Shown here: piece after piece, positions 47,331-64,000 of the stretch
How the letters are laid out: every line of letters starts with the position of its first letter
How positions within the stretch are numbered: position 1 is the stretch's first letter
NCBI GenBank assembly: GCA_964617355.1
Contig: CAZTXP010000146.1
Span: 6,371 to 70,370, forward strand
Direction: 5' to 3'
DNA from: an uncultured Enterobacteriaceae bacterium
Lineage (GTDB): Bacteria; Pseudomonadota; Gammaproteobacteria; Burkholderiales; SG8-39
DNA length: 64,000 nt
Program-made: the position numbers and the translations under genes
The notes under the pieces: model-generated
The model's input: only the letters and a program-made list of their open reading frames with translations
Told to the model about the DNA's origin: nothing
Databases searched by the model: none

Positions 47331-48128
47331 ATGCACACCCACACCAGCACCGTTCGCACCGCGGGCGAGCACCTGCGCGACTGGCGCCAGCGCCGGCGCC
47401 TGTCGCAGCTCGACCTCGCGCACGCCGCCGAGATCTCGCCGCGGCACCTGTCGTTCCTCGAGACCGGCCGCTCGCAGCCCAGCCGCGAGATGGTGTTGCG
47501 CCTCGCCGAGCGGCTGGAGGTGCCGCCGCGCGAACGCAACGCGCTGCTCGTCGCCGCCGGTTTCGCGCCGATGTTCCGCGCCCGCGCGCTCGACGACCCG
47601 GCGCTCGAGGCCGCGAAGCGCGCGATCGAGCGAATCCTCGAAGCGCAGAAGCCGTACCCGGCCTTCGCCGTCGACCGGCACTGGAACATCGTCGCCACCA
47701 ACCACGCGCTGTCCGCCATGTACGAAGGCGTCGCGCCGGAACTTCTCGGCCCCGGCGCGAACGCGATGCGCCTCGCGCTGCACCCCAAGGGCGTGGCGCA
47801 GAAGATCGACAACCTCGCCGAGTGGCGCGCACACCTCGTCGCGAGGCTGGCGCAACAAGTGGCGAACTCCGCAGACCCGGTCCTCGCCGCGTTGCTGGAA
47901 GAAGTGTCGGGCTACCCGGCGCCCGAAGGCGATGCGCACGTGCACGACCCCGCCGCCGCGATCGCCGTGCCGCTGCGCATCCGTACGCCGATGGGCACGC
48001 TGTCGTTCATCAGCACCATCACCGTGTTCGGCACGCCAGTGGACGTGACGCTGTCGGAACTCGCGCTGGAGCAGTTCTTCCCGGCGGATGCGGAGACGGC
48101 GAGGGTGGTGGGGGCGATGGCGGGGTAG
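47331..48128 (+). CDS. XRE-family HTH regulator with MmyB-like C-terminal domain
   Basis: LRDWRQRRRLSQLDLAHAAEISPRHLSFLETGRSQPS HTH, then an MmyB-like ligand domain. Confidence 0.75.
   Translation: MHTHTSTVRTAGEHLRDWRQRRRLSQLDLAHAAEISPRHLSFLETGRSQPSREMVLRLAERLEVPPRERNALLVAAGFAPMFRARALDDPALEAAKRAIERILEAQKPYPAFAVDRHWNIVATNHALSAMYEGVAPELLGPGANAMRLALHPKGVAQKIDNLAEWRAHLVARLAQQVANSADPVLAALLEEVSGYPAPEGDAHVHDPAAAIAVPLRIRTPMGTLSFISTITVFGTPVDVTLSELALEQFFPADAETARVVGAMAG
47938..48128. repeat. Direct repeat copy 1 (3' end of MmyB-like gene), about 97% identical to 53060..53253
   Basis: Encodes ..AIAVPLRIRTPMGTLSFISTITVFGTPVDVTLSELALEQFFPADAETARVVGAMAG. The same peptide is encoded by copy 2. Confidence 0.85.
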
Positions 48129-56428: not shown

Positions 56429-56551
56429 ATGCGCACCCCCGACCCCCGCTTCGAGAACCTGCCTGGTTTCCCCTGGTCACCGAAGTACTGGGAGTGGAAG
56501 GGCCTGCGCGGGCACTGCCTCGACGAAGGCGCGGGAGAGGCGTTCGCCTGA
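56429..56551 (+). pseudogene. Duplicated 5' fragment (about 40 codons) of the haloalkane dehalogenase gene at 61391
   Basis: MRTPDPRFENLPGFPWSPKYWEWKGLRGHCLDEGAGEAFA* versus MRTPDSRFANLPGFPWSPRYWEWKGLRGHYLDEGAGD.. About 90% nucleotide identity over about 110 bp. Confidence 0.65.
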
Positions 56552-56569
56552 CGGAAGCGGAGAAACGGT

Positions 56570-56864
56570 GATGACCAAGGCATTCGCCAGCATCAAGCGG
56601 GGGCTCCAGCAGGCGATCCGCCACCGCAAGGGCAAGCGGGTGGCGGGCCTGCGCCTGAACGTCGCACCGGAAGTCGACGTCAAGTCGATCCGCGAGCGCA
56701 CCGGGCTGACCCAGGTGCAGTTCGCCGCCACCTTCGCGATCAGCCTCGGTGCGCTGCGCCATTGGGAGCGGGGCGACCGCAAGCCGCGCGGCACGGCGCT
56801 GGTCCTGCTGAATGTCATCGCGAAGGAGCCGCAGGCGGTGCTGCGCGCCGTCGTGCGGGCCTGA
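56570..56864 (+). CDS. XRE-family HTH regulator/antitoxin-like protein (YiaG/HigA2-like)
   Basis: ..SIRERTGLTQVQFAATFAISLGALRHWERGDRKPRGTALVLL.. Confidence 0.65.
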
Positions 56865-56980
56865 GGCTGGTTAAAGGGCGGGAAGGGAAGCTATCCGACT
56901 CTGACCCGGAATTTCCGGAATTTCAGTTAGGTGTGGGTGGTCGCGATGCCTTCGACAACTGTAGTGTAGTCGAGCGCGGA

Positions 56981-58612
56981 TTACTTCTTTTCGAACAGTT
57001 CGTGGAGTTGCCCGAAATATGACTGGTCTGCTTCCGCGAGTTCACGCACCGCTCGTCGGGCAGATGAAAGTGATCTCTCGAGCGGTTCCAGCTTTCGCCA
57101 GGCAGACGACACCTGAAAGCCGGCGATGGTACCGATATCCGTTGGCGTCACCAACTTGGCGATCTCGTTCAATCTCGGCGCGGCAAGCGACACGCAGGAA
57201 CGCGCGATGTGGGTCGGGCCGAAGACCTGCAGCGACTTCGCGAGGATGTCAGACTGGCTCGCGGCGAACCGGACGCGCATCGCCTCGGCCGGCAGCACGG
57301 ACGGAGACGATTCGAGTTCCCGCTTCCGGCTAGCCTCTTCCAACCGGCGCTCAATCGACACCTTGACTCCACCTAGGGCGGGATCCAACGAAATGCGCAC
57401 GCACTCCAGCGCGCTCGTACTCATGACCTCTCTCAAGGCGTGCCGAAACGCGAGAAAACGCGTTCCGCTCGGTGATTCAAGAAATGTGACCAGCAATTCC
57501 AGTTCGACCGGCGTGAGTTCCTTGGCGAGCGACGTGGCATAGAACGTCGTCGCGTCCACGCCGTGGCTGATGCGTACGGGCTGCACGCGCTGAAGATGGG
57601 TGCGTGTCAAATCGATGGCGGCGCTGGCGTCATCCGGCAGGCGTAATCCGCGCGCGGCCAGGACCTCGGATGGAAACGCAAAGATGATCGCAAGATTGGA
57701 CCTTCCCTGGTCATCGGCGAACCCGCGCTGGGTTTCGTCGACGCCGAGCAATCTAGCGACTGCGCGGGCCATTTCGGCGGGTGTGCGCTTGTCCACGCCG
57801 AAAAGCCCGAACTCGCGTGCTAGCGCCCGGCCTTTGGCGATCGCAGCCCTGCGATCCTCTGCTCCGGCGCTGGCGTAAGGGGATGCAAGCCCTGGCGAGT
57901 CGAGAAAGCTTCGGGGAGACCCTTCAAGGTATTCGCTGGTCAGCGCATGGTATGCGAGTCCGATGGCGGGCCCGATCGGAGACCAGTCCTTTCCCACGTG
58001 CGGGTAGAGCCACATCAGCGAGCTGACCAGGCGGCTCTTCGATTCCTCCTTGGCAACGTGCTGATGCCAGAGTCGAGCGAGCCGGCGGGCCTCCTCGGGA
58101 TTCGGGGGAACATTGGGGATGCGCTGGAATTCCGCGACGTTCCGGTCGCCGACGAGGATGCCGAGTGCGAGCCGGCAGGCCCTGGGCGTTCCCGCTTCGC
58201 AAGCGTCGCCGGCCAGCGCCATCGCTCGCTTGACTGCTTCCGGATCAGCGGGCGTGGCGGACGCCGCCCTCGAAAGGAGATCCATTGCAAGGAGCAGCTT
58301 GCCCTGTGCATCGCCAAGCGATGCCGCATGTTCAAGGGCTTCCGTGCGCAGCGAGGCGCGCTTCGTCGCGTCGCCTGCGTGCCCGCCGGCATAGAGGGCG
58401 GCAAGGAGTTTCGCAGCGCGGGGATCGGTCTGCGCACTCTTCTGCAGGGTCGCTTCCGCGGTCGCCATGTCCCAGCGGTCATATGCGGATTGGCCCGCTT
58501 CGTAGTCGGCAACCGAGGCGGTCGCAGCGAGCGCCAGGGTCACGGCAACGGCGGCCGCCGAGCGCAAGTGAGAGAACCGGCACTTGCTCGAATCGGGGAG
58601 GGGGGAGTTCAT
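56981..58612 (-). CDS. Secreted hypothetical protein with Sel1/TPR-like N-terminal repeats
   Basis: ATG at 58610..58612 after GGGGAGGGGGGAG. Signal peptide MNSPLPDSSKCRFSHLRSAAAVAVTLALAATASVA. Confidence 0.6.
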   Translation of the reverse strand: MNSPLPDSSKCRFSHLRSAAAVAVTLALAATASVADYEAGQSAYDRWDMATAEATLQKSAQTDPRAAKLLAALYAGGHAGDATKRASLRTEALEHAASLGDAQGKLLLAMDLLSRAASATPADPEAVKRAMALAGDACEAGTPRACRLALGILVGDRNVAEFQRIPNVPPNPEEARRLARLWHQHVAKEESKSRLVSSLMWLYPHVGKDWSPIGPAIGLAYHALTSEYLEGSPRSFLDSPGLASPYASAGAEDRRAAIAKGRALAREFGLFGVDKRTPAEMARAVARLLGVDETQRGFADDQGRSNLAIIFAFPSEVLAARGLRLPDDASAAIDLTRTHLQRVQPVRISHGVDATTFYATSLAKELTPVELELLVTFLESPSGTRFLAFRHALREVMSTSALECVRISLDPALGGVKVSIERRLEEASRKRELESSPSVLPAEAMRVRFAASQSDILAKSLQVFGPTHIARSCVSLAAPRLNEIAKLVTPTDIGTIAGFQVSSAWRKLEPLERSLSSARRAVRELAEADQSYFGQLHELFEKK

Positions 58613-58647
58613 GCTGCGCAAAGCATTCACGCCGTGTGATGTGCCGA

Positions 58648-60549
58648 CTACTTCTTCGTGCTCTCGAGCGGCGTCGGCGATCGCTCGATGTACATCTCCG
58701 AAGTGACGCCTCCGGCCGTCTGGTCCCCGGGCTTCGGCGGGATGTAGCCGCTGACGCGCGAAACAATCGTCAGCTTCCGGTCGCAGAGCTCGAATGTCCA
58801 GCGCTCGATGGAGGTGAACCGGTTTGTCGCCGACGGGGCCTGCGCGCATTCGACCAGCGCTACGTCGACGGTGCTGCACGCCGCCTCCGTCTTCGCGTAT
58901 GCCTGCATGCGGTCCATCAGGGAGGCGACCTCCGGCATCACGTCGGGGCAGCGCTTGCCCGCGTAGGCCGGCGGTACGCCGGCCGGCGCCGGACGTGCAA
59001 CGGCGGGGCGCGGCGATTCCCCGGAGAAGAGGGGCGGCACCGTGTAGGCCACCGGGTCCGCGCGCGTCGCCGCGGGGGAGAACGTGGTGTTGACCAGGGT
59101 CGTGCGGCCATAGCCGAAATTCCGCGTGCCCTCGACCGCGTAGATCACGGGCCCGGCGGAATGGCTGACCTCGACGGATCCGCGGGTCACGTATACGCCA
59201 GGCACGAACGGCGTGCCGACAGGGCCGCTCTCGTGGGACAGCGACACCGGACCGTCGGCGATCACGATGAGGCCGCCGCCATGCGCGATCTCGACCGGGC
59301 CGCGCGCGATGATGATCGAGTTGCGCGCGACGCCGACCTTTACCGCCCCGTCGGCCACCAGGATCGTTTCGGAGAGCCGGACGGATTCAGCGAAGCCCGG
59401 CTCCACCTGCAACCGCGCGGAGCCGATGAACGCGTACTTTGCCTGCAGGTCGGGAGGCAACTGGAGCGCCTCGAACACGCGGCGCACGGCCTGCACGACC
59501 CGGGCCCTCGGAACTTGCGCGGCAGGCACGCCCGCCAGGGCGAGCGCGTCCTCGGCGGCGAATGCCGTCGGCCTCGCTGGCAACGGACGCGGTTGGCGAG
59601 CAGGCTGAGCGCCAGACTGCACGACGATCGAGTGGTCGTAGAGCGGCTCGCCGGCCGGCGTCGCCTTGCCCGTGCGCTTCGACTCCACCCGTACGTTCAT
59701 CTCCTTGCCGCACATCTGCAAGGCCCACAGCTCCCTCGACCCGGACTTGTCGGCCCCGGCGTCCTCCTGTTCGCAGCGCACGACGGCGGAGTCGACCTTC
59801 GTGCAGTTGCCCATGCGGCGTGCGTGCGGCAACAGCTGCGAGAGCACGTTCGTGTTGTCGGCGATCGCCGTCTTGCAGCGGACGCCGGAGTGCAGCACCG
59901 ACTCGCCCGAGTCCACCTGCATGCCGCCATCCTCCGGCGGCCGGATCGGCTCGCCCTGGAACAGCGGCGGCCGGGTGTACAGGTAGGCCAGGTAGCCGCC
60001 CTCGATCTTCACCGCGGAGTTGTATGCCGTGAACGGCTCGCTCGAAGTGACCTTCGCGCCGTCGACCGCATAGACGATCGGCGAGACGCCGCTGTCGATG
60101 GCGATTGCCCGGCGCGCGACATAGATCCCCGGGGTCGATTCCCGGGCGATCCGGACGTTGCCGCGAGAAACGACGACCGCGTTGCGCGCATCGCCGATCT
60201 CTACGTCGCCTTCGGCGACGACGAGCGTGCCATTCGCGCTGCCCAGCTTGACCGCCCCTGCCGCCAGCAGGATCAGCGGACCTGTCGTGGGCAGGTTGGC
60301 GCCATGCGTCGCGCGCCGGATCGGCGCGGTCCTCAGATTGACGACTGCCGCCCGGCGGTCATCCGCCACCTCGAGCCGCTCGAGCATGCCGTCGAGCGCA
60401 TCGTGGACGCTCGCCGGAGTCGCGCGCGCCTGCAGTCGCGCCGCGAAGGCGAGCACATTTTCGCCTCGGAACACCGATTGGGCGCCGCCCGTGAGCGGCA
60501 GCGCCATGAATCCCAAGGCCAGTCCCGTGACCGCGAGCACTCGCAACAT
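58648..60549 (-). CDS. Secreted hypothetical protein with two-fold internal repeat (beta-rich G/V/A modules + Cys-containing subdomains)
   Basis: Signal peptide MLRVLAVTGLALGFMALPLTGGAQS. The module ..GTLVVAEGDVEIGDARNAVVVSRGNVRIA.. is repeated as ..ETILVADGAVKVGVARNSIIIARGPVEIA.. Confidence 0.6.
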   Translation of the reverse strand: MLRVLAVTGLALGFMALPLTGGAQSVFRGENVLAFAARLQARATPASVHDALDGMLERLEVADDRRAAVVNLRTAPIRRATHGANLPTTGPLILLAAGAVKLGSANGTLVVAEGDVEIGDARNAVVVSRGNVRIARESTPGIYVARRAIAIDSGVSPIVYAVDGAKVTSSEPFTAYNSAVKIEGGYLAYLYTRPPLFQGEPIRPPEDGGMQVDSGESVLHSGVRCKTAIADNTNVLSQLLPHARRMGNCTKVDSAVVRCEQEDAGADKSGSRELWALQMCGKEMNVRVESKRTGKATPAGEPLYDHSIVVQSGAQPARQPRPLPARPTAFAAEDALALAGVPAAQVPRARVVQAVRRVFEALQLPPDLQAKYAFIGSARLQVEPGFAESVRLSETILVADGAVKVGVARNSIIIARGPVEIAHGGGLIVIADGPVSLSHESGPVGTPFVPGVYVTRGSVEVSHSAGPVIYAVEGTRNFGYGRTTLVNTTFSPAATRADPVAYTVPPLFSGESPRPAVARPAPAGVPPAYAGKRCPDVMPEVASLMDRMQAYAKTEAACSTVDVALVECAQAPSATNRFTSIERWTFELCDRKLTIVSRVSGYIPPKPGDQTAGGVTSEMYIERSPTPLESTKK

Positions 60550-60658
60550 GGCCGGTCGGGATCCCGGCGCGTGCGCTTGGATGTCCGAAGGGGTAGTCAA
60601 GGATCGCGATGTCGACTGGAAAAGGCGGAGCCTCATGGATTCGGCAGAACGGGGACGG

Positions 60659-61189
60659 TCAATTCTTCGGCGGTACGCACGACGGGTCTCCGGACGATGC
60701 ATCGATCCGCGCGCCTCGGTGGATTGCCGTGCCGCGAATGCAGGTGGGCCGGCATCCCATGTCGTACTCGGTGACCTGGGCGGGCTTTCCGCAGCTGGAC
60801 GCGTTCGTGCAGGTCCATTTCTCCCATTCGTGTCCGACGGCCCGTTCGAAGACCAGTTCGTCTACCGCCACGCGCGCCGCTGCAGGCGACATTTCCTTCG
60901 TGACCCATACCTCGAAGTAGTGCTCGGCGCTGTTCCCGTGGCACTCGCGCTTCCATGCCGCGTGGATCCAGAGCGGTCCCTTGCGGTCGCCATCCAGTTC
61001 GAACGTCACGGGCCGGACCCGGCCAGCCCCGCGCTGCCGAGCTTCTTCGTTGGCGCTTGCATGGTGGATGGACGACGAGCGCTGCCCCTCCGCGACATAC
61101 AGAGGCTTTGCCCGCAGGTGATCATCGTGCATAGCGCAACCCGCGCAGGCGGAAAGCGCGATCGCGACGGTCATATGCTGTAGGTTCAT
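60659..61189 (-). CDS. Hypothetical lipoprotein (176 aa, Cys/His/Trp-rich)
   Basis: Lipobox IALSAC. ATG at 61187..61189. Confidence 0.55.
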   Translation of the reverse strand: MNLQHMTVAIALSACAGCAMHDDHLRAKPLYVAEGQRSSSIHHASANEEARQRGAGRVRPVTFELDGDRKGPLWIHAAWKRECHGNSAEHYFEVWVTKEMSPAAARVAVDELVFERAVGHEWEKWTCTNASSCGKPAQVTEYDMGCRPTCIRGTAIHRGARIDASSGDPSCVPPKN

Positions 61190-61390
61190 CGCGGCGGACT
61201 CCGGGTGCGCGGGAAATCCGTCCCGGCGGGCGGCACGAAGTATGGTACTGCTCGGGGTCGGGTGTTCCAATCGCGATTCGGGCCGATGGGAATATGTACA
61301 CCGAAGGTCGCTAAGTGTCGGGTCTCCGAGACGGGAGTGCTTGTCTGCGAACGCATCGACACTGGGAGCGCGAATGACTATCGTCTCCCC

Positions 61391-62275
61391 ATGCGCACCC
61401 CCGACTCCCGCTTCGCCAACCTCCCCGGTTTCCCCTGGTCACCGAGGTACTGGGAGTGGAAGGGCCTGCGCGGGCACTACCTCGACGAGGGCGCGGGCGA
61501 CAGGACGCTGCTCTGCCTGCACGGCGAGCCGACGTGGAGCTACCTGTACCGCAGGATGATCCCGCCGTTCCTCGCGGCGGGCTGGCGGGTGGTGGCGCCG
61601 GATTTCCTCGGCTTCGGCCGCTCGGACAAGCCGGAGGACGAGGGCTTCTACACCTTCGACATGCACCGGGCGTTCCTGCTCGATTTCGTCGAGCGGATGG
61701 ATCTCGAGCACGTGGCGCTGGCCGTGCAGGACTGGGGCGGGCTGATCGGCCTGACGCTGCCGATGGAGGCCCCCGCGCGCTACGAGCGGCTGCTCATCAT
61801 GAACACCGCGCTCGGCACGGGCGAATCCCCGCTCACCCCGGGCTTCATCGCGTGGCGCGACTACGTGGCGAAGACGCCGAGCATGGACTGCGGAAAGCTC
61901 CTCGCGCGCGCCTGCCCGCATCTAAGCGAGGCCGAGGCGCTCGCCTACGAGGCGCCGTTCCCCGACGCGGCGTCGAAGGCCGGCGTGCGGCGCTTCCCGC
62001 AGCTCGTGCCCGACCGGCCCGACGCGCCGGGCGCGGCGGTCTCCCGCCGCGCGCGCGACTGGTGGCGCAGCGCGTGGCAGGGCGAGACCTTCATGGCGAT
62101 CGGCGCGAAGGACCCGGTGCTCGGCCCGCCGGTGATGCACGCGCTGCGCTCGATCATCCGCGGCTGCCCGGAACCGTGGATCCACCCCGAGGGCGGGCAT
62201 TTCCTGCAGGAGTGGGGTGGGGAGGTGGCGGGGGAGGTGCTAGGACGGTGGCGCAAGTGTCGAGCGGATTCCTAG
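61391..62275 (+). CDS. Haloalkane dehalogenase-like alpha/beta hydrolase
   Basis: HGEPTWSYLYR.., the nucleophile elbow VQDWGG, and a C-terminal catalytic His (GGHFLQE). Confidence 0.85.
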   Translation: MRTPDSRFANLPGFPWSPRYWEWKGLRGHYLDEGAGDRTLLCLHGEPTWSYLYRRMIPPFLAAGWRVVAPDFLGFGRSDKPEDEGFYTFDMHRAFLLDFVERMDLEHVALAVQDWGGLIGLTLPMEAPARYERLLIMNTALGTGESPLTPGFIAWRDYVAKTPSMDCGKLLARACPHLSEAEALAYEAPFPDAASKAGVRRFPQLVPDRPDAPGAAVSRRARDWWRSAWQGETFMAIGAKDPVLGPPVMHALRSIIRGCPEPWIHPEGGHFLQEWGGEVAGEVLGRWRKCRADS

Positions 62276-62359
62276 AGCGCTTTGACATCACACCGAAACG
62301 ATCCAAAACTGCGTTCTCGTTGGTGCAAGTGCAGACGCTGCTGCTATAGCATCCGACTT

Positions 62360-64000
62360 TCACTCTGGTTCTTCTAGATTTAGGCCGTGCTTTGTCAAAT
62401 CAATGCCTAGATCACGAAGAATTGAGTGTGCGCGACGACGCCCTTTCTTGCTATCACCCGCAGACGAAATCGCCACTTCGACCAGCTTACTTTCGAGATC
62501 GCTTGAGCGTGCGCGTTCCGACTCAAGCTCCTTCTCAATCTCCGCAGCTGCATCGACCCAATGTTCTACGCGGCGATCTAGAGAAAAGCCGGCGTCCTTT
62601 GCTGTTCTTACAAGATCAAGTACCGCGTCTGCATGAACATCCGGGTCATCCGTGCGCGCGGCCTGCCTAACGCTTGACAGCTTTTCCCGCAGGCTTTCAC
62701 GAAGATCCCATTCCAACTTGGGCAAGAACTCAGAAGATAGATCGACTCCGTTGGCCGTAAGCTCGGTGATTTCGTGATTCATTAAGTGCGCTGCTGCGGA
62801 TATTGCTGGATTAAACAGAAGAGAAACGACATCACTATCGTCAATGACTGCGCCGCACGTGAACTCGGCTAATTCCGGAAGCGTATGCGTAAAGACGTGA
62901 ACCTTCGCTAGCGGAGGCCAATGGGGTGAGTTCTCGGCAATTACGAATGCACGATCCTCGCTGACCAGGTAGCCAACTGGTACCGACTGTCCGCCGTCCT
63001 TCGCGGGGTGTGCAAAGTACATCGCCATGCGAATGTCATCGCGCACACGCTGTAGCTTTTGAGCTTCCTCACGAAACTCCGCTTTCATCCTCGATTGCTC
63101 TTTCCCTTCAACCAAGTAGGCGCTGAGTTCGTTAAGCTTTTCAGCGGAACTTTCGGGGATTTCGATTTCCGAGATGCGTACGAAATCTAGTTGTCGCGAA
63201 AGCAGGTGAAGGATGTAATCGAACGATGAGGTATCTCGATTGTAGCGAGCCCAATAGTTAGACCAATCTCCCTTGAATGCGCCATTCCTTTTCGCAAAAT
63301 AGAATCCGCGTACGATCGCGCTCCAGACATTGCCGTCCACCATCGCGGGCGACATTCGGAGAAGTGAATTCTCGAAGCGATGAAACGTTCTGTCGGCGCG
63401 AGATATGTGGTCGGCGACTTCTAGCAAGACCTTGTCCGTAACGGCGAATTTGACGCCCGCATCATTAATTGCCTTTGCCGAGATTCGCAATGCGCGAGCT
63501 TCGGGTAGGTCGTCAACGATGGTATTCAGGACGGCGTCGGTGTCTAGTGCAATCAGTGATCGCTGCATCACTGTTTGCTGCCACCGGCGACCCAGCGGAT
63601 CAAGATTTCGAATCGCTAACGCACTGTATGTTCGGACAAATGGCGCGAGCTGCTTCCAGTTCTCCGGAATCTCCACAAAACCAGCGACGGCAATTAGGGC
63701 GGTAGTGCCGACTTCGGCGGGAAGATCCTTGGCAAGAATTGGGCGAAGGTCCTGTACTGTGCTTGCTGCAGTTGCGGGGATATCTTTGTCCGGCTGAATT
63801 GGTCCATACGCCCTTAGTAATGAAAGGACCGCTCGGCGCAAATTTCGTTCCAGGTATCCAGAGAGGGCCCCGGAAATCTGGGCATGGGGATAAGTGGAGC
63901 TCTGCTCTAATGGGCGCATAGGCGTCCGAGGAGAGAGAGCGATGAGAAGGCCCCGCCGCAACCACACAGCGGCATTCAAGGCGAAGGTGGCGATCGCCGC
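62360..64000 (-). CDS. Large hypothetical protein in low-GC segment; reading frame open to window edge (5' partial or TTG/ATG start near 63919..63979)
   Basis: At least 539 aa. GC drops to about 50% from 62280. No family recognised. Confidence 0.5.
   Translation of the reverse strand, partial: AAIATFALNAAVWLRRGLLIALSPRTPMRPLEQSSTYPHAQISGALSGYLERNLRRAVLSLLRAYGPIQPDKDIPATAASTVQDLRPILAKDLPAEVGTTALIAVAGFVEIPENWKQLAPFVRTYSALAIRNLDPLGRRWQQTVMQRSLIALDTDAVLNTIVDDLPEARALRISAKAINDAGVKFAVTDKVLLEVADHISRADRTFHRFENSLLRMSPAMVDGNVWSAIVRGFYFAKRNGAFKGDWSNYWARYNRDTSSFDYILHLLSRQLDFVRISEIEIPESSAEKLNELSAYLVEGKEQSRMKAEFREEAQKLQRVRDDIRMAMYFAHPAKDGGQSVPVGYLVSEDRAFVIAENSPHWPPLAKVHVFTHTLPELAEFTCGAVIDDSDVVSLLFNPAISAAAHLMNHEITELTANGVDLSSEFLPKLEWDLRESLREKLSSVRQAARTDDPDVHADAVLDLVRTAKDAGFSLDRRVEHWVDAAAEIEKELESERARSSDLESKLVEVAISSAGDSKKGRRRAHSILRDLGIDLTKHGLNLEEPE

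Follow-up and report, generated by a model that had tools for sequence, protein, structure and literature searches.

The DNA analysed here, a window of 64,000 nucleotides (nt) from a metagenome-assembled contig (CAZTXP010000146.1) of an uncultured Burkholderiales-like bacterium, carries a haloalkane dehalogenase gene, dhlA, whose 5′ end recurs upstream of it as a second, truncated copy. The segment between the truncated copy and the intact gene (56539–61386, 4.85 kb) holds four genes: one on the plus strand, for a helix-turn-helix (HTH) protein, followed by three on the minus strand, for exported proteins of 543, 633 and 176 amino acids (aa), the last of them a lipoprotein. How this arrangement came about is the subject of what follows, and the features that bear on it are listed here by position and strand (ORF, open reading frame).

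56416..56421 (+): TACAAT, a putative −10 box 7 nt 5′ of the ATG of the dhlA relic, conserved with relatives
56425..56538 (+): copy A, the left repeat unit, identical to 61387–61500 at 104 of 114 positions
56429..56551 (+): ORF of the dhlA relic, codons 1–37 and then out of frame (tblastn)
56539..56551 (no strand): apparent deletion junction between dhlA relic and toxin tail, ambiguous within about 12 nt
56546..56571 (+): probable remnant of a toxin ORF, its last 25–30 nt, with the GGAG ribosome-binding site of the antitoxin (frame comparison)
56571..56864 (+): predicted XRE-type HTH antitoxin (NadS/MqsA-like), 97 aa (Pfam HTH_3)
61356..61384 (+): promoter-like TCGACA-17-TATCGT, a candidate site matching the consensus at 9 of 12 positions in a scan and ending 6 nt 5′ of the ATG of the intact dhlA
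61387..61500 (+): copy B, the right repeat unit, which is the 5′ end of the intact dhlA (blastn and alignment)
61391..62275 (+): dhlA, predicted haloalkane dehalogenase of the DhlA/DppA type, HLD-I, 294 aa (NCBIfam NF002043)
62240..62275 (+): altered 3′ end of dhlA, RWA-stop replaced by RWRKCRADS-stop, where homology with sister strains stops

A direct repeat and two copies of dhlA

Alignment of the two ends of the segment by blastn recovered a direct repeat of 114 nt, in which copy A (56425–56538) and copy B (61387–61500) agreed, ungapped, at 104 of 114 positions (91%, E = 2.8e-42), with an exact run of at most 32 nt; all remaining matches of the repeat query in the window were no better than E = 0.15. 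The two units are spaced 4962 nt apart, and the 5′ edge of each lies 4 nt ahead of an ATG (56429 on the left, 61391 on the right). An earlier note on this DNA had claimed that the start of dhlA (about 40 codons, at about 90% nucleotide identity) recurs at 56429–56551 and that the left copy is cut short by a stop, and both claims were borne out: copy A comprises codons 1–37 of dhlA, beyond which the frame is lost, and its ORF stops after 40 codons. Similarity to dhlA extends perhaps to about 56549 if small indels are allowed. The same note had raised the possibilities that the fragment at 56429 belongs to an intact longer paralogue in another frame, or that the similarity would lose significance when properly aligned. 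The E value of the alignment disposes of the latter, and a tblastn search with full-length DhlA near copy A matched residues 1–37 but picked up no more of dhlA in any frame, which means that copy A does not belong to a longer paralogue.

Over 108 coding sites the two copies differed at nine, of which four or five (about half) were non-synonymous. Three of the changes were private to copy B and five or six to copy A. Those of copy A included A9E, which replaces a residue common to most relatives, and Y30C, at a position (site 89) where 12 of 12 compared sequences differ from copy A.

The right-hand gene aligned end to end with both DppA (2xt0, E = 3e-108) and DhlA (1edb, E = 3e-95), scored 315 bits against a cutoff of 265 for NCBIfam NF002043, and carried the motifs QDWGG, AWRDY, KDPVLG and GGHF at the positions expected from alignment to 2xt0. 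These motifs supply a nucleophile Asp-Trp, a second Trp, an Asp and a His, which we take to be the catalytic triad and the two halide-binding Trp residues. Judged by family and catalytic residues, the gene is predicted to encode an intact HLD-I haloalkane dehalogenase, which resembles the HLD-I enzymes of Xanthobacter autotrophicus (DhlA) and Plesiocystis pacifica (DppA) in its full-length alignment, its family score and its catalytic positions. It differs from them in being a predicted enzyme, in its length (294 aa versus 288 aa) and in its final codons, which come from foreign low-GC DNA.

Those final codons mark a point at which strains diverge. Homology of the dhlA 3′ end with three sister strains (contigs L044, L061 and L067) stops at 62239–62251, with low-GC DNA supplying the last codons in the window, and the four strains have four different 3′ flanks, which indicates that dhlA acts as a conserved anchor between variable neighbours. 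In the window, the DNA 3′ of dhlA (62240–63979) is about 52% GC and contains a minus-strand ORF of 539 aa with no Pfam or NCBIfam match. Exact look-up returned no identical protein on record for either the window DhlA or the product of this ORF, and the GTDB species genomes yielded 33 dhlA loci, the best at 81% aa identity and none sharing a flanking gene with the window. The informative relatives were those in the 90% identity protein cluster around the window DhlA, which come with long contigs. In L039–L043 (85–89% nt identity) the gene order is sulfatase, beta-lactamase-like, VapBC, dhlA, ParE/Phd and GlnS. Both the sulfatase block and the ParE/Phd pair are present in the window too, in a different order relative to dhlA, from which we conclude that this stretch, rich in toxin–antitoxin (TA) genes, has been reshuffled between lineages. 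An integron reading of the TA-rich region was rejected, as its genes lie in mixed orientations and its intergenic gaps of 7–40 nt are too small for attC sites.

Another relative, L046, contains at 904–2989 a full dhlA, a minus-strand ORF of 121 aa, a perfect palindrome of 40 nt and then a second dhlA copy, which begins from codon ~84 and matches the full gene at 95% identity. This contig, covered at 1.3x, is possibly a chimera, and we did not rely on this partial second dhlA as a parallel case.

Upstream of the start codon the two copies in the window part company. Eleven relatives (L001–L008, L039, L045 and L046) carry a TCTACAAT-type −10 box 7 nt ahead of the dhlA ATG, with the variants CCTACAAT in L045 and L046 and CCTAGAAT in L039, and the genes upstream of dhlA in these 11 relatives are unrelated to one another. 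The conserved geometry of the box would fit a leaderless dhlA mRNA and suggests leaderless expression of this dehalogenase clade. Copy A carries the box as CCTACAAT at 56414–56421, and its homology to L039 in blastn reaches to −22, whereas that of copy B reaches to −7 only; copy B and sister strain L044 have GACTATCGT in place of the TCTACAAT-type box. The ancestral upstream signal is thus kept in copy A alone, where A9E and Y30C also indicate relaxed constraint. Because it retains the −10 box and has changed at conserved residues, copy A resembles a relic that is decaying at the ancestral promoter of dhlA, and the intact dhlA would be read from a different promoter-like site within the 200 nt that it shares with the divergent lipoprotein gene.

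With a metagenome-assembled contig as the source, and with copies that at 91% identity resemble strain or species variants, a chimera of two co-occurring strains had to be considered. Exact-protein look-ups yielded comparison contigs, 99.7–100% identical to the window, in MEGAHIT (ENA), Logan and JGI assemblies that cover more than 10 samples. The stub-to-HTH junction was spanned in six other assemblies (L049/L056, L053, L058, L060, L062 and L100), and the lipoprotein-to-dhlA junction was spanned by L035, L044 and L067 and reached by L063, L065 and L066. Logan contigs (k = 31), which are unitig-based, start or stop within the 32-mer common to both repeat units and break only there, as two copies in a single genome would lead one to expect, which shows that both dhlA copies coexist in those samples. 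The repeat arrangement is not an assembly artefact: both junctions recur across the MEGAHIT, Logan and JGI assemblies, and these independent assemblies effectively refute a chimera, to which we attach next to no probability.

An orphan antitoxin and its sister-strain variants

The HTH protein matched Pfam HTH_3 (27.4 bits, cutoff 23) and, below the cutoff of 60, NCBIfam NadS (43.9 bits), with a match to MqsA that was weaker too. In 61 of 80 related metagenome loci, defined by 56–100% identity to the HTH protein, a RelE/ParE toxin homologue lies directly upstream of the HTH gene, and several of the 19 toxin-less loci are cut by contig ends. A Croceicoccus plasmid likewise encodes an HTH protein, 45% identical to that of the window, preceded by an annotated RelE/ParE toxin with an ATGA overlap. 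The window protein is 79–91% identical to the antitoxins of the toxin-bearing loci, and 40–91% identical to antitoxins of RelE/ParE plus XRE-HTH (NadS/MqsA-like, COG2944-type) TA modules. In contrast to those modules, the window appears to have had the toxin and its upstream palindrome deleted and the antitoxin fused behind the dehalogenase stub. No cognate toxin gene stands upstream of the HTH gene; what remains is a tail of 25–30 nt, in that the frame overlapping the HTH start ends in ...LTEAEKR-stop, where related toxins end in ...LKAIVEKMR-stop with an ATGA overlap. Because the toxin is reduced to this tail, the window module is, as far as its sequence tells, an orphan antitoxin and not a TA system.

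The palindrome, CTAAGCCANTGGNTTAG, is present in L044 and 25 related loci. It ends 1 nt ahead of the toxin start in the loci checked (L044, at 1959–1975; L071, at 1080–1096; and L076) and is probably the operator of this RelE/ParE-type TA family. A search of the window gave no match to it even with two mismatches allowed. Some toxin-less loci (L073 and L075) have kept it. With up to 19 of the 80 loci lacking the toxin, toxin loss with retention of the antitoxin appears to be common in this family.

In the window, similarity to dhlA ends at 56538–56549 and similarity to L061 begins at 56546–56551, which sets the limits of the junction. The HTH gene starts 19 nt past the stop codon of the stub, and for this reason the orphan antitoxin, its own palindrome and presumably its own promoter lost, is probably transcribed from the −10 box of the stub, through the 40-codon leaderless ORF.

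Less-deleted intermediates were found in two related strains, L044 and L061. The first is 98.9% identical to the window over the lipoprotein–dhlA stretch, and runs from the lipoprotein gene through dhlA into a VapB-like ORF of 63 codons, the palindrome and the first 67 codons of the toxin, at which point the contig ends. Its 63-codon ORF shares 114 nt, at 83% identity, with an ORF of 77 aa upstream of the PIN (VapC-like) gene of L039, and its 67 aa toxin fragment is 53% identical (E = 2e-21) to an annotated plasmid toxin. The second, L061, is 98.5% identical to the window, and its 5′ part consists of the last 12 codons of dhlA (GEVAGEVLGRWA-stop) and 7 nt; these 45 nt are identical to L044. 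Next come about 17 codons of the toxin tail (...LDLARNLNTATEKQR-stop), including 34 nt that are missing from the window, and then the HTH gene as in the window and the 3′ end of the 543 aa gene. Because L061 has a dhlA end and a longer toxin tail before the same HTH gene, the window and L061 would thus represent two different deletions of a state in which dhlA, the toxin and the HTH gene were contiguous. The deletion would amount to about 1.4 kb in the window (from dhlA codon ~40 to toxin codon about −9) and to about 0.6 kb in L061.

Origin of the partial duplicate

What the assemblies display directly is the repeat, the stub, the orphan antitoxin, the tail of the toxin and the variant junctions of the sister strains. 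The reading that we favour, with confidence slightly better than even, is that a second dhlA was once complete and that the left repeat is its decaying 5′ remnant, the outcome of duplication and then deletion. The locus would at one time have contained, in order, a dhlA copy at the ancestral promoter, a VapB-like remnant, a pair of RelE/ParE toxin and HTH antitoxin, the three secreted-protein genes and today's intact dhlA. A deletion of ~1.4 kb would then have removed dhlA from codon ~40 to its end, the VapB-like remnant, the probable TA operator and most of the toxin, joining the stub to the now orphan antitoxin. The two-copy state itself could have arisen by tandem duplication, or by single-crossover integration of a dhlA-bearing circle. 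We infer this order of events, the use of the promoters and the origin of the two-copy state.

The partial duplicate is best explained by a later deletion, which would also have taken the toxin, and not by an insertion event. The earlier note had proposed either an insertion that duplicated part of its target or an older copy that had been disrupted; the kept −10 box, the changes at conserved residues, the deleted toxin and the junctions in L061 and L044 lead us to favour the latter over the former. That two dhlA copies should have flanked the segment at all still calls for a step of insertion or duplication. Searches of Pfam and NCBIfam with the genes of 56539–61386 found no integrase, transposase or replication protein, and the flanking genes include no integrase or transposase. 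With no recombinase encoded in its 4.85 kb, the segment cannot be recognised as a mobile element; we regard it as not self-mobile but part of a chromosomal region that is variable and rich in TA genes.

Several observations count against duplication followed by deletion. No contig was found in which the nucleotidyltransferase gene (55863–56390), which adjoins the stub on its left, is followed by an intact dhlA, and the six exact matches to this gene carry the stub or break in the repeat. Over 45 nt the dhlA end of L061 does not differ from the L044 allele downstream of the lipoprotein gene, so the dhlA of L061 and L044 may lie at a chromosomal position other than that of the stub. Taken at face value, L044 and L061 together give a cyclic gene order, which calls for a tandemly repeated or circular molecule, or else for a contig that is collapsed or chimeric. 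Such an order would be compatible with a ~6.4 kb unit that was duplicated in tandem and then decayed reciprocally, with single-crossover integration of a dhlA-bearing circle, with a free circle, or with a contig running across two collapsed copies. The divergence of the two copies (9 of 108 nt) equals that of copy B from species-level relatives (7–10 of 108 sites; 7 from L046), which would fit decay and the import of a copy from a different lineage equally well; copy A differs from L046 at 10 sites and from L039 at 12. Phylogenetic placement of the copies was set aside, 108 nt being too short to separate paralogy from import. Finally, 3.2 kb to the left a mirror-image repeat pair encloses a segment of similar size (5.1 kb), which may point to an insertion process shared by the two.

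The reading that the earlier note had put first is that of a one-step, homology-anchored insertion or displacement, which we weighed as a serious alternative and consider doubtful. Incoming DNA with the HTH gene, the three genes and dhlA would have paired with a resident dhlA, either as a linear fragment, by homology-facilitated illegitimate recombination, or as a circle with a 5′ piece of dhlA, by a single crossover; the non-homologous end would have joined inside the resident dhlA and orphaned its 5′ end upstream. No recombinase is required, and several features of the locus would suit such an event: the mirror-image architecture at the MmyB-like gene (193 nt at 94%, with a spacing of 5125 nt against 4962 nt), a repeat that starts 4 nt before the start codon, a promoter-like site of its own for copy B, and two copies as divergent as orthologues from different lineages. 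A comparable model, displacement by homology-anchored recombination, has been proposed for orphan gene ends in Rhs, contact-dependent inhibition (CDI) and type VI secretion system (T6SS) effector–immunity arrays (Kirchberger et al., 2017; PMC5361080). As in those arrays, an intact gene and a diverged partial end bracket newer genes at our locus with no dedicated recombinase, and the protective partner (immunity there, the antitoxin here) has been kept and the toxic one lost. Unlike in them, a metabolic enzyme is duplicated here, it is the 5′ end that is orphaned, no polymorphic toxin system is involved, and the sister-strain intermediates point to duplication and then deletion. Displacement does not predict L061, in which a complete dhlA 3′ end runs straight into a longer remnant of the toxin and then the same HTH gene, nor the intact 5′ part of the toxin after dhlA in L044; it would need two independent insertions with different end points to account for both, and a precise empty site was not found in the contigs searched.

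The cyclic order obtained from L044 and L061, together with the identity of their dhlA ends over 45 nt, could also point to an amplifiable or circular unit of ~6 kb that comprises dhlA, the TA pair and the three genes and exists as a tandem amplicon or as an excised circle, formed and re-inserted through RecA-driven exchange between dhlA copies. The window would then be a decayed integration product. Direct repeats that flank a segment are a substrate for excision and amplification. We find this improbable nonetheless: the unit holds no gene for replication or recombination, the repeats in the window, at 114 nt and 91% identity, are a poor substrate, and nine of the ten HTH-bearing contigs show or fit the linear arrangement of the window. 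A bolder idea, drawn by analogy and in our estimation a long shot, is that the dhlA unit and the neighbouring 5.1 kb MmyB-linked tRNA-array unit might both be recombinase-free translocatable units that move through recombination at anchor genes. If this were true, such units would circularise or amplify between copies of the anchor gene and re-insert at that gene in related genomes, each leaving a diverged stub, and the result would be a general route for moving cargo that needs only host RecA and a housekeeping-like anchor gene.

Islands that integrate in the 5′ end of a gene and rebuild it, such as those with dusA-specific integrases, offer a further comparison, under which the 114 bp repeats would represent the attL and attR sites of a site-specific island that rebuilt the dhlA 5′ end and has since lost its integrase. 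As in dusA-type islands, the repeats come from the first ~100 nt of the target gene, the intact gene would be read from element-side DNA, where its rebuilt start has a new promoter-like site, and the stub keeps the old promoter. The lower GC content at third codon positions (GC3) of the three genes (0.71–0.86, against >0.9 for core genes) and the presence of a TA gene inside would likewise suit an island. Direct repeats are indeed present at both ends, but in contrast to dusA-type islands neither the segment nor the adjoining DNA encodes a tyrosine recombinase, and no integrase, excisionase or transposase lies between the repeats, which are imperfect throughout their length and have no clear identical core with arms. 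Nor has the segment been seen at dhlA in other lineages. The relatives at 85–91% nt identity (L039–L043, L045 and L046) lack it but differ entirely in their flanks, and among near-identical strains no empty site appeared in the contigs found via the nucleotidyltransferase gene. The variants in L061 and L044 are not expected from att recombination, and a homologue of the 633 aa protein occurs alone in L038, so that the three genes do not travel together. We regard the remnant of an island as very improbable.

On the favoured reading of duplication and then deletion, the feature is a scar of those two events; it adds an example to known processes, does not amount to a mobile element of a new type, and overturns nothing in current understanding. 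Its use is as a worked example: in a genome assembled from a metagenome, an apparent insertion between repeats may instead have been left behind by duplication and deletion, and contigs from individual strains can bring the intermediate stages to light. The same locus provides a case in which a toxin was purged and its antitoxin kept and, if the promoter is used as we suppose, rewired to a foreign promoter, and one in which a dehalogenase gene has been the fixed anchor between strain-variable flanks.

The exported proteins and the neighbouring segment

The remaining features of the segment are the three minus-strand genes and a hairpin that precedes them.

56906..56928 (+): terminator-like hairpin between the convergent HTH and 543 aa genes, a candidate by consensus match
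56981..58612 (−): 543 aa predicted exported protein, with an N-terminal signal peptide read from the sequence; GC3 0.71
58648..60549 (−): 633 aa predicted exported protein with a signal sequence and two homologous modules, the halves 27% identical
60659..61189 (−): 176 aa predicted cysteine-rich lipoprotein with the lipobox LSAC (Cys15), read from the sequence

The GC3 of the genes for the 543, 633 and 176 aa proteins (0.71, 0.86 and 0.76), against >0.9 for most core genes of the window, suggests that they are foreign to it, the 543 aa gene most of all. In describing the segment, the earlier note was right about the HTH gene, the lipoprotein and the internally duplicated 633 aa protein; its label of Sel1-like for the 543 aa protein was dropped, as no Sel1 or TPR match was found at E ≤ 0.01. 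The 543 aa protein matched only itself among 5.8 billion proteins, had no NCBIfam match and gave a weak match to DUF2059 (E = 0.003).

The 633 aa protein has no Pfam or NCBIfam match and consists of two modules of ~300 aa, whose halves align at 27% identity (E = 3e-30). A word-based search of the same 5.8 billion proteins found three other clusters (P0002–P0004), at 43–63% identity and all ~940 aa long, which have an extra C-terminal TPR-like domain that the window protein is without. The window protein ends where these relatives continue into their TPR-like domain of ~310 aa, and the 543 aa gene starts 35 nt downstream; comparison of the 543 aa ORF with that C-terminal domain showed no homology. 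The difference points to recombination as the event by which the 633 aa protein lost its C-terminal domain or had it replaced. A profile search over 1.84 billion representatives extended the family by about 45 remote members, in layouts of a single module (200–350 aa), one module plus a TPR-like domain (~630 aa), or two modules plus a TPR-like domain.

An AlphaFold model built on an alignment of 38 sequences (mean predicted local distance difference test score, pLDDT, 83.8) predicts that each module has a short helical head, a beta-solenoid of ~110 residues and a helix-plus-sheet (alpha/beta) subdomain with conserved cysteines. Tested against Bactofilin/DUF583, the protein did not qualify as a member of the sequence family, and it has no sequence-family match to known beta-solenoid proteins, namely the bactofilin BacA, the Bacteroides 'putative adhesin' lipoproteins (3jx8, 3ljy and 3pet) and a Ca-dependent antifreeze protein (3p4g). 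It is set apart from these proteins by its predicted export, by its two modules, each with a helical head and a cysteine-containing alpha/beta subdomain, and by relatives most of which have the C-terminal TPR-like domain. The locus accordingly offers a sparse family of exported two-module proteins with a predicted beta-solenoid, along with a 543 aa exported protein without detectable relatives.

The 176 aa lipoprotein has no Pfam or NCBIfam match, and its gene adjoins that of the 633 aa protein in 10 of 10 contigs. The earlier note had proposed to check whether the three genes co-occur elsewhere. Of the full-length homologues of the 633 aa protein, the one furthest removed in sequence (P0004, on L038, 43% identical) is encoded by itself among metabolic genes, namely fatty-acid and pyruvate dehydrogenase genes, so the trio does not form a conserved unit. 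As a working guess, prompted by their export signals and the predicted fold alone, the three proteins may be structural or binding proteins of the envelope or surface.

The mirror-image repeat to the left (47934–48126 and 53059–53251) encloses the segment 48127–53058. The 3′ 193 nt of an MmyB-like gene (47331–48128) recur there at 94% identity 5125 nt downstream, and the enclosed genes encode a 321 aa protein of no assigned function, an AAA ATPase and an SPFH/Band 7 protein, along with an array of tRNA genes. In L053, from another sample, the right-hand MmyB copy is at least 45 nt longer than in the window, so that either the right copy is a truncated relic in the window or the strain of L053 lacks the insertion. 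The tRNA array (51873–52396, minus strand), beside the SPFH and AAA genes, comprises four or five genes with spacers of 1–8 nt; ARAGORN called Arg-ACG, Lys-CTT, Phe-GAA and one tRNA with an odd anticodon loop, and Rfam called four, one of them truncated. Closer to the dhlA relic, a HigB ORF (55450–55623, minus strand) of 57 aa matches positions 23–74 of the 74-position HigB_toxin profile. This N-terminally truncated HigB adjoins an apparently intact HigA (55065–55439), and is the second disabled-looking toxin in the region.

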